Shown: positions 51,025 to 52,806 of the stretch, piece by piece
Layout: each line of letters starts with the position of its first letter
Numbering within the stretch: position 1 is the first letter of the stretch
Source: Escherichia coli
GTDB taxonomy: Bacteria; Pseudomonadota; Gammaproteobacteria; Enterobacterales; Enterobacteriaceae
Reading direction: 5' to 3' (one strand)
Assembly: GCF_024502345.1 (NCBI RefSeq)
Contig: NZ_JALDNN010000001.1
Length of the DNA stretch: 64,000 nucleotides
Made by a program: the position numbers and the translations under genes
Notes under the pieces: model-generated
The model's database searches: none
The model's input: only the letters and a program-made list of their open reading frames with translations
Told to the model about the DNA's origin: nothing

Positions 51025-52806
51025 TTATCTCCTGTAGTGAATCTCATCGTGTAGTCTGGGGGTAACAATTCGTAAATTATCAATATCGTATACGCTGCCG
51101 CCATATTCAATTGCAACACGATGATGTATCTGGAATTTTTTAACTATTTCTTTAGGGCCATAATGCCAACCGTCAATAGGTGCTTTTGCGGTTAATCCTT
51201 GTTTTATACGTGTTTGGTTACCACTTGAAAACTGCGCTATCAACTCCGGATCCTGACTCACCTCCAGCCACAGCGCCTCGCGAAACTCATCAAAGGTTTT
51301 AAACTCCCGTCCGCGCAATTTATCAGCAATATGCGCCGGGATTGGCGCGCCGTTGCCGTTATTGGATACCGACATATCCAGCCAGCGAGTTCCTGATGAA
51401 AGCGGGACGCCGCGCCCTGTTACAACACCAGGCAGCTTTCGCGGATCCTCCTTCAGGTAAACATAGATGGGCTTAATACCGGATCCCGCCGGAAAAACCA
51501 GAATATAATCGTTGAATTCTTTCGGATCAGGAACCGGGAATGGCGGCGTGGTATAGGTATCTGTACCGTCCGGAATCGGCGTCACCAGAATGGTGGGCTG
51601 ATCCAGCGGCGGCCTGTCGTTACCGGTATGGCCCGGAACATTCCCATGTTCCGGATTTTCCGGCGTCCAGGTAATCAGGGGGCCATCGACATCGTGAGCG
51701 GGGGTAAATTCATAACGCTGCGTCTGCTCGTTCCACTGCATGTTCGCCACGCGGACTTTTTCATACGGCGTACCTTCACCCGTATGAACACCATACACCT
51801 GAGGCTTGCCGTGAATATCAGTTCCCCAGAAAAAACGTACCCGGGTGGTGGCGGTACTGCCTGCTAGTGCTTTCTGCCGCAGTTCTTCCTCATACCAGAA
51901 CTCATCACGTCCGGGCACGCGAGCACTGCCCTCGCCCGCAGAGGGAATATACAAAGCAGATGCCAACGCACCGATGTAAGAGCCTCGGGTTGCACTGAGT
52001 ATGCCACTGAGCGACCATTTTCCCCATATTTGAGCCGCCAACACACTACCCGGAAACAGTAGCATGGTTTGAGCTTCTGCGGGTTGCCCGACATCGTTAG
52101 CCTCGGGATGGTGGTATCCACAGCAGTCATCAACCACTGGCTGAGCAAAAATCGCTACTTGACCGAAGTTTTCAGCGGGTTCTTCTGCCGTTCCAGCATC
52201 TGTACATCCCTTCTCCTTCAGACAGGATTTGGCATAGACCGGGTTAACCGCTGGTGAAGAGAGTGGAAGGTTAACAACTGGTAGAGGTTCAGGCTTAAGA
52301 TTACTGGCAGGTGGGCTTTTAGGCGGAATAAATAAGCTATTATAGCCAGCAGGAAAGGTCAACCAGTCAAATTCCGTATTGGCTATTAGATGTTTACATA
52401 ATATGTAGTGATAATCGACAGTTACACATTCGGTAGGAAGATTATTGTCAGAAATGTTTACATGAATAGCAGTTAATGAAGCATTTCTTAGCTGAATATA
52501 ATAATACCGTTCCCAGCGCCCGCTTTTATTTATACGATACAAATCGATTTCAATAAATAACCGCTCATTCTGATTGATGGCATTAGACAGTAGCGGTGAG
52601 CTTTTATCAATGAGTTTGCAAAATTGTAGCCCCTGTAGATTAACGCCATTACCAGTACTGGTAATGGCGTTGGTGAGTGCAAAGGCAAAAATTTCATCTT
52701 CATGGCCAACCTGCCAGCGATTACCAACCGACGCATACGTCCCACAGCCTGAAGAAATATCGCCCTGCTTCTCACCGATTATTCTCAGGTAAACAATATC
52801 GCTCAC
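51025..52806 (-). CDS. Hcp (T6SS TssD) fused to C-terminal colicin-E9-type HNH DNase domain (Hcp-extended toxin)
   Basis: N-terminal ~150 aa match Hcp (MSDIVYLRIIGEKQGDISSGCG.., GHEDEI, KLIDKSSPLL, LRNASLTAIHV); C-terminal ~135 aa align with the colicin E9 DNase domain (VTGRGVPL..WLD..GAPIPAHIADKLRGREFKTFDEFREALWLEVSQDPEL..HHRVAIEYGGSVYDIDNLRIVTPRLHDEIHYRR); Pro-rich linker between. Confidence 0.85.
   Translation of the reverse strand: MSDIVYLRIIGEKQGDISSGCGTYASVGNRWQVGHEDEIFAFALTNAITSTGNGVNLQGLQFCKLIDKSSPLLSNAINQNERLFIEIDLYRINKSGRWERYYYIQLRNASLTAIHVNISDNNLPTECVTVDYHYILCKHLIANTEFDWLTFPAGYNSLFIPPKSPPASNLKPEPLPVVNLPLSSPAVNPVYAKSCLKEKGCTDAGTAEEPAENFGQVAIFAQPVVDDCCGYHHPEANDVGQPAEAQTMLLFPGSVLAAQIWGKWSLSGILSATRGSYIGALASALYIPSAGEGSARVPGRDEFWYEEELRQKALAGSTATTRVRFFWGTDIHGKPQVYGVHTGEGTPYEKVRVANMQWNEQTQRYEFTPAHDVDGPLITWTPENPEHGNVPGHTGNDRPPLDQPTILVTPIPDGTDTYTTPPFPVPDPKEFNDYILVFPAGSGIKPIYVYLKEDPRKLPGVVTGRGVPLSSGTRWLDMSVSNNGNGAPIPAHIADKLRGREFKTFDEFREALWLEVSQDPELIAQFSSGNQTRIKQGLTAKAPIDGWHYGPKEIVKKFQIHHRVAIEYGGSVYDIDNLRIVTPRLHDEIHYRR

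Follow-up and report, generated by a model that had tools for sequence, protein, structure and literature searches.

Tether, leader and S-type pyocin (IMT) domain make up the region between Hcp and DNase in the Usp (Hcp-ET3-4) protein of Escherichia coli

The window, i.e., the whole analysed stretch of 64,000 nucleotides from Escherichia coli contig NZ_JALDNN010000001.1, carries the gene usp (hcp-ET3-4), and the part of its product lying between the N-terminal Hcp domain and the C-terminal DNase is described here. The parts of the protein follow each other in the order Hcp, tether, leader, Pyocin_S (IMT) domain, and HNH DNase. The codon of residue n begins at window position 52806-3(n-1), and the gene and its parts are located as follows.

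51025..52806, minus strand: usp / hcp-ET3-4 coding sequence, 593 amino acids (aa) plus stop, GTG start (from the list of open reading frames, ORFs)
52369..52806, minus strand: Hcp / TssD tube-protein domain, residues 1-146 (profile and PDB matches)
52246..52368, minus strand: proline-rich tether, residues 147-187, DWLTFPAGYNSLFIPPKSPPASNLKPEPLPVVNLPLSSPAV (composition, 24% proline)
52141..52245, minus strand: paired-cysteine leader motif, residues 188-222, NPVYAKSCLKEKGCTDAGTAEEPAENFGQVAIFAQ, with C195 and C201 (alignments)
52057..52140, minus strand: variable acidic spacer containing Cys and His (DDCCGYHH), residues 223-250, PVVDDCCGYHHPEANDVGQPAEAQTMLL, which holds M248 (alignment A1)
51922..52056, minus strand: Gly/Ala-rich hydrophobic segment, residues 251-295, ending in YIPSAGEGSA and followed by RVPGRD (hydropathy, alignments)
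51883..51921, minus strand: charged connector into the first Pyocin_S helix, residues 296-308, RVPGRDEFWYEEE (alignments and AlphaFold2, AF2)
51457..51882, minus strand: Pyocin_S (IMT) domain, residues 309-450 (Pfam PF06958, PDB, AF2 and Foldseek)
51463..51510, minus strand: DPY motif D-x4-FP-x8-Y, residues 433-448, DYILVFPAGSGIKPIY (exact match of the regular expression)
51028..51456, minus strand: linker and colicin/pyocin-type HNH DNase domain, residues 451-593 (Pfam, PDB)

The 593-aa ORF is usp, encoding Usp (Hcp-ET3-4), which is already well studied. The same extent of the ORF is annotated in near-identical genomes in RefSeq, and the exact protein is WP_256632838.1, with a cluster size of 2755 members. 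It is not a chance ORF, because full-length copies are found in 1057 of 5426 complete E. coli genomes (at least 90% DNA identity and at least 80% query coverage). The protein encoded at the aroP-pdhR locus of UTI89 is identical at 575 of 593 residues (97%) in a gapless alignment. Usp of UTI89 and Usp described here have in common the aroP-pdhR locus, the length of 593 aa, the Hcp/Pyocin_S/colicin-DNase architecture, and the imu genes downstream; they differ in 18 substitutions, among them C274 in UTI89 and R274 here. PAIusp is described in the literature as a small island located between aroP and pdhR that encodes Usp and imu1-3, and Usp within it is composed of Hcp, S-type pyocin, and colicin nuclease parts. 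Hcp-ET3-4 is UTI89_C0121, an antibacterial protein accompanied by three immunity duplications (PMC6730261).

Both ends of the protein are recognized by several models. The TssD model TIGR03344 covers residues 1-146 with 124.7 bits (cut-off 58.9), the Pfam T6SS_HCP match extends over residues 28-139, and the Hcp chains 6a2v, 3he1, and 5mxn in the PDB match the N-terminus. Pfam Col-Pyo_DNase covers residues 460-591 with 144 bits, and DNases of colicins E9/E2/E7 and pyocins AP41/S2/S8 in the PDB are aligned from residues 453-459 with E values of 1e-27 to 1e-31. The N-terminal Hcp (TssD) domain and the C-terminal toxin are parts of one protein, which is the mark of Usp / Hcp-ET proteins. When the whole protein was scanned against Pfam at E<=1, only three families were found: T6SS_HCP, Pyocin_S, and Col-Pyo_DNase.

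About 300 residues between these ends belong to neither fold, as the initial annotation had proposed: Hcp profiles end at about residue 146 and the DNase begins at residues 453-460, so the region is not an integral part of either. Its proline richness is also borne out, with 12.5% in residues 160-455 against 1.4% in the Hcp part; the content is 24% in residues 147-187 and 13% in residues 309-450. The coordinates given there (51600-52350) do fall in the region, where they equal residues 153-402, but residues 160-455 occupy 51442-52329, and about 160 nt at the low end are missing from the interval. The region had been called unassigned. This holds for inspection by eye only, as two of the three peptides quoted (residues 161-189, 381-428, and 435-451) lie inside the Pfam Pyocin_S match, the third one quoted being the DPY motif, and the S-type pyocin domain of Usp had already been described in the literature. 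The region is not one module of about 300 aa, being composed of a tether, a leader, and a Pyocin_S domain. Of the identities suggested for it, a linker is present as the proline-rich residues 147-187, and an S-type pyocin-like translocation module is present as residues 309-450 (Pyocin_S match, DPY motif, and a predicted fold like that of 3MFB and 5ZNM). A pre-toxin or PT-TG domain was not found, there being no Pfam match in residues 147-312 even at E<=10. The further suggestion, that the region bears on the passage of the nuclease through the inner membrane of the target, is supported by the present analysis, as argued below.

Residues 309-450 are an S-type pyocin (IMT) domain, already known in Usp. 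Pfam Pyocin_S (PF06958) matches with 140.6 bits (cut-off 22.5; E 6.1e-41) over model positions 1-139 of 139. The Pyocin_S domain of ECA1669 (PDB 3MFB) was found with E 7.7e-18 by sequence and 1.5e-48 with the family profile, and klebicin G (9hn1) and colicin D (5ZNM) match the same region. The DPY motif was defined by Sharp et al. 2017, who found it in every nuclease bacteriocin. Colicin E9 depends on the Tyr of this motif, Y285, to which Y448 of Usp is equivalent. In two AF2 runs, computed with 40 and 121 sequences, residues 306-455 are mostly beta, with a helix at residues 306-315; the predicted local distance difference test (pLDDT) is mostly 68-91 and falls to 45-55 in a loop at about residues 386-425. 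The only significant Foldseek matches of the model in the PDB were 3MFB (E 5e-9), colicin D 5znm (3.5e-4), and the T-domains of colicins E9/E7/E3; klebicin G (9hn1) was absent from the Foldseek matches. The domain is predicted on this model to have the fold of two antiparallel beta-sheets seen in 3MFB and 5ZNM. The likeness to colicin T-domains exists at the level of the predicted fold only, and Pfam Cloacin (PF03515, the colicin E-type T-domain) has no match at E<=1 in the whole protein. The killing domain C-terminal to it (Col-Pyo_DNase, residues 460-591) is a cytoplasm-acting one, as is proper to a Pyocin_S / IMT domain. The NCBIfam model of the VPA1263 effector (PyS-HNH) aligns to residues 199-590.

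In the first description of Hcp-ET3-4, this 'Pyocin S3' part was held to be a second toxin (DNase) domain, giving two toxins in one protein, and reviews that quote Ma et al. still call it so. Such a function is very improbable. The region matches the non-catalytic Pyocin_S family with its L-shaped fold of two beta-sheets (3mfb, 5znm), and no nuclease family was matched there. Toxicity of VPA1263 requires the HNH domain, which by itself also suffices for it, and PyS-HNH carrying the H837A substitution fails to cleave DNA (PMC9602870). In pyocin G and colicins, this domain does import and not the killing chemistry. The evidence from Usp and from its homologues points to an import domain.

The segment ahead of the Pyocin_S domain is less well covered by known families. 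The tether (residues 147-187) is not alignable among Hcp-, PAAR-, and VgrG-fused relatives (alignment A1, 40 sequences). The alignment becomes possible at residue 188 with the leader motif, which has the form YAKSC-x5-C-TDAG...NFG. Residues A192, K193, C195, T202, G205, F214, and G215 are kept in at least 90% of 121 aligned relatives (alignment A3), which are otherwise 30-35% identical to Usp. This motif is the first alignable position behind three type VI secretion system (T6SS) carriers, namely Hcp, PAAR, and VgrG-DUF2345, and is therefore taken as the N-terminal border of a mobile cassette composed of leader, Pyocin_S, and toxin. The toxin behind leader and Pyocin_S differs among the relatives, being an HNH DNase, an E3-type rRNase, or one of another kind. 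The spacer behind the motif is 0 to about 100 residues long in relatives, and its sequence also varies widely.

A Pro content of 24% immediately behind the Hcp fold and a conserved Cys motif exactly at the junction with three T6SS carriers are what could be expected if the middle region served in the attacker only, as a spacer or packaging element by which the 48-kDa extension fits on or in the Hcp tube and is secreted, without any function once inside the target. In VPA1263, information for secretion likewise resides in the N-terminal regions and not in PyS-HNH (PMC9602870). For the region as a whole this is unlikely, since bacteriocins that diffuse and do not depend on a T6SS (klebicin G and the plasmid-borne protein L007) also have Pyocin_S and the hydrophobic segment, although Hcp packaging is irrelevant in them, and colicin E9 and pyocin G need the domain for killing from outside. 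Packaging is plausible for the tether and perhaps for the junction motif, and could hold for residues 147-222 alone.

No other stretch of the protein is as hydrophobic as the Gly/Ala-rich segment of residues 251-295, whose best 19-residue Kyte-Doolittle mean is 1.11 at residues 269-287. Together with the subsequent AGEGSARVPGRD, this segment aligns to residues 427-470 of klebicin G (PDB 9hn1; profile A2), and in BLASTP the segment aligns to L007, a klebicin-like tRNase bacteriocin encoded on a plasmid ('...FFSRPAGGGSDKVPGRD'). VPGRD is conserved in both klebicin G and the L007 bacteriocin. As the segment is found in klebicins too, it is also part of the conserved import module of diffusible bacteriocins. 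Both the Pfam Pyocin_S model and the 3MFB construct start C-terminal of it.

A transmembrane helix or a Tse6-type transmembrane domain was considered for residues 251-295 and rejected, the hydropathy maximum of 1.11 being lower than the rule-of-thumb value for a membrane helix in a 19-residue window (about 1.6). It is also quite unlikely that this stretch inserts into the membrane and lets the toxin translocate by itself, independently of FtsH, like the transmembrane domains of Tse6 or the glycine zipper of Tde1. The stretch is rich in small residues and is kept beside Pyocin_S in many relatives, and glycine-zipper-dependent translocation is reported for another T6SS DNase, Tde1. Against this, the best window is well below typical membrane helices, there are K, R, and W within the stretch, AF2 gives short strands and no helix (with low confidence), and FtsH dependence is established for bacteriocins with the same module.

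No fold is claimed for the leader, because residues 186-305 have pLDDT of 23-65 in both AF2 runs; a tentative hairpin at the Cys pair and a beta-hairpin in the hydrophobic segment appear there with low confidence. Residues 147-312 matched zero Pfam families at E<=10, and phmmer of the same residues against all PDB sequences at E<=10 gave zero matches, solved colicins and klebicins included. A word-indexed search for homologues with residues 186-312 returned mostly gene fragments, and an exhaustive search against 1.84 billion cluster representatives returned 40 clusters only. The motif strings FAKSC, YAKSC, and CTDAG gave only irrelevant matches in open-access full text. The S-type pyocin (IMT) domain of usp is already annotated and discussed, and its finding as such adds little; the anatomy of the leader, i.e., the motifs ahead of Pyocin_S, is a small detail and the sole point that is possibly new, no description of it having been found in open-access text.

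Taken together, residues 147-450 most probably form the non-catalytic delivery part of Usp, composed of the tether (147-187), the leader (188-308), and the IMT domain (309-450), serving delivery by T6SS and then import by IMT and FtsH. The proline-rich tether would flexibly join the toxin cassette to the subunit of the Hcp ring. The T6SS would shoot the Hcp fusion into an adjacent Gram-negative cell and presumably deposit it in the periplasm, where the IMT domain and the hydrophobic leader may engage the inner membrane together with FtsH, an AAA+ protease whose use by Usp is inferred from homologues. The DNase would then be handed into the cytoplasm and clipped off, as with nuclease colicins and pyocins, and the producer cell would be guarded by Imu immunity proteins. 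Both the IMT domain and FtsH are needed for pyocin G to reach the cytoplasm, and among the T6SS effectors that have the Colicin-DNase domain, 97.6% have an IMT domain as well; T6SS_HCP is among the domains co-occurring with IMT, and the position of IMT in Usp has been drawn (PMC9040868). In DNase colicins, FtsH-dependent processing takes place some 30 residues ahead of the DNase domain (PMC4026351). According to reviews citing Ma et al. 2017, the Hcp-ETs are secreted in a T6SS-linked manner and kill other bacteria. The conserved leader lies outside both the Pfam model and the crystallised construct, and offers mutational targets, at low cost and in an E. coli toxin well suited to genetics, for the question of how IMT moves a nuclease across the inner membrane.

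Several points weigh against this delivery and import scheme. The low pLDDT of residues 186-305 is one of them. In the literature, no experiment was found showing that Usp needs its Pyocin_S domain or FtsH, what IMT does during transport is called unknown as late as 2026, and the site where T6SS effectors are deposited, periplasm or cytoplasm, is unresolved (PMC9602870). There are no T6SS genes within the 64-kb window. Usp is also reported as a genotoxin for mammalian cells, which import into bacteria does not explain. The literature presents it as bacteriocin-like, acting on mammalian cells and associated with uropathogenic E. coli, and the middle region might accordingly have been adapted to entry into mammalian cells. 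This is hardly probable: all recognisable elements are common to antibacterial effectors and bacteriocins of soil, plant, and marine bacteria, the locus holds immunity genes and orphan toxin/immunity modules, as is typical of conflict between bacteria, and no domain resembling those for entry into eukaryotic cells was detected in the Pfam scans.

The cysteines of the leader form a pattern of their own. Usp contains cysteines at positions 21, 63, 127, 137, 195, 201, 228, and 229 only, and none in residues 230-593. Exactly two Cys are present in 89 of 94 distinct variants of the motif, and in 17 of these 89 the partner Cys is relocated, the spacings including CC, C-x2-C, C-x4-C, C-x6-C, and C-x8-C. 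Judged from the sequences, this pattern suggests a constraint on a pair, through either a disulfide or metal binding. In the PAAR-linked relative encoded on a small plasmid, the last cysteines (146 and 152) are those of the motif, and none occurs in the next 415 residues. The paired-Cys motif is present in Hcp-, PAAR-, and VgrG-fused relatives and in short Pseudomonas orphans, but is missing from the one soluble klebicin-like protein examined, a plasmid bacteriocin with zero cysteines; the hydrophobic segment ending in AGxGSxxVPGRD is common to T6SS effectors and soluble klebicins. It is a reasonable hypothesis that a C195-C201 disulfide would be formed in the periplasm and would stabilise or mark the cassette. 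In the cytoplasm-entry domains of CdiA-CT proteins a single Cys pair is usual, and the disulfide that it forms keeps the domain stable in the periplasm of the target and favours entry (PMC9424206). Like the middle of Usp, these domains are modules between a delivery part and a nuclease that serve the crossing of the inner membrane; unlike it, they are alpha-helical bundles after a VENN motif, rely on membrane-protein receptors of various kinds, and are described as having no relationship to Pyocin_S (PMC9424206). A fuller reading, tentative and rather doubtful, is that residues 188-308 are an undescribed conserved IMT leader in which the hydrophobic AGxGSxxVPGRD part would belong to the true import unit and the paired-Cys motif would form its disulfide only on arrival in the oxidising periplasm of the target, and would thereby stabilise the cassette or license it to pass the inner membrane.

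The motif cannot be called strictly T6SS-specific, because the inspected Pseudomonas locus lacks T6SS neighbours. This locus (L002, 8001-9352, Pseudomonas sp., CP197353.1), the only one of its kind inspected, has housekeeping neighbours and no T6SS genes nearby. It represents a large Pseudomonas family whose members are about 375 aa long and have a short N-terminus (...PNGGASWAAW...), the motif in the form FAKSC...TDAG...NFG, the hydrophobic segment, Pyocin_S, and an E3-type rRNase. The gene is followed by a DUF7683 gene, probably the immunity gene. The proteins could be either T6SS cargo or minimal soluble pyocins. The PAAR-linked relative is encoded on the 6.1-kb plasmid NZ_CP056162.1 of E. 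marmotae (L006, 2058-4719), where a PAAR gene and a DUF6392 gene accompany the gene of a 567-aa effector that has both the Cys motif and Pyocin_S. It is a small ColE1-type plasmid with a Rop gene, and a T6SS toxin cassette is carried here on a plasmid type that usually carries colicins.

Among known systems, the IMT domains of pyocin G, pyocin S2, colicins E2-E9 and D, and klebicins resemble that of Usp in the profile match, the DPY motif, the predicted fold, and the place upstream of a cytoplasm-acting nuclease. The hydrophobic segment with its AGxGSxxVPGRD ending is common to Usp, klebicin G, and the plasmid klebicin-like protein. The IMT of Usp is fused to a T6SS tube protein, whereas that of bacteriocins is fused to receptor-binding and Ton/Tol-box regions, and Usp has the paired-Cys leader, whereas the plasmid klebicin-like protein is without cysteine. 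ECA1669 of Pectobacterium (3MFB) is, like Usp, a T6SS effector and is the best match among solved structures (35% identity in Foldseek), but its construct begins after the hydrophobic segment and is uninformative on Usp residues 188-305. VPA1263 of Vibrio parahaemolyticus (MIX-LysM-Pyocin_S-HNH) has the same C-terminal cassette of Pyocin_S and HNH DNase, but its carrier is a MIX domain and not Hcp. Usp reached 214 bits with the NCBIfam VPA1263 model, far below the cut-off of 900 bits, and is therefore not a VPA1263 equivalog.

The historical 'Usp' of 346 aa, the form studied in earlier biochemistry, begins at M248 (codon 52063-52065), at the hydrophobic segment, and is without the Hcp domain, the tether, and the Cys motif. 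Residues from M248 to 593 number 346, in agreement with the historical H-N-H numbering of 309-346 (PMC3685522). As the start of an independent product, M248 was rejected, no convincing Shine-Dalgarno sequence being present upstream.

The surroundings of usp comprise the following features.

50738..51022, minus strand: imu1, cognate colicin-type immunity gene, 94 aa, 3 nt downstream of usp (ORF list)
47430-48227: pdhR, flank of the usp locus, with the immunity ORFs between pdhR and aroP
53384-54757: aroP, the other flank of the locus

The layout aroP-usp-immunity-pdhR is annotated in RefSeq also in UTI89 and FDAARGOS_944, and a 'bacteriocin immunity protein' is annotated at the position of imu1 in near-identical loci. 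Downstream of usp on the minus strand (48547-51022) are four immunity-like genes, one coding for 94 aa, two identical copies for 96 aa, and the fourth for at least 78 aa. Three orphan HNH C-terminal fragments (79, 79, and 62 aa) lie in between, the repeats having a unit length of about 698 bp. In FDAARGOS_944 and UTI89, there are three immunity genes and two fragments only, so that one extra tandem unit, of 698 bp with an orphan toxin fragment and an immunity gene, is present here.

The G+C content along the locus is mosaic, with 39.5% in the Hcp part, 46% in the tether, 50-56% in the leader and Pyocin_S, 48% in the DNase, and 35-37% in the immunity region. This is consistent with modules of different origin joined into one gene. 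Between aroP and ampE (54916-57272), a sugar:cation symporter of the GPH family and a GH43 glycoside hydrolase are encoded; both genes are present in FDAARGOS_944 and missing at that position in UTI89.

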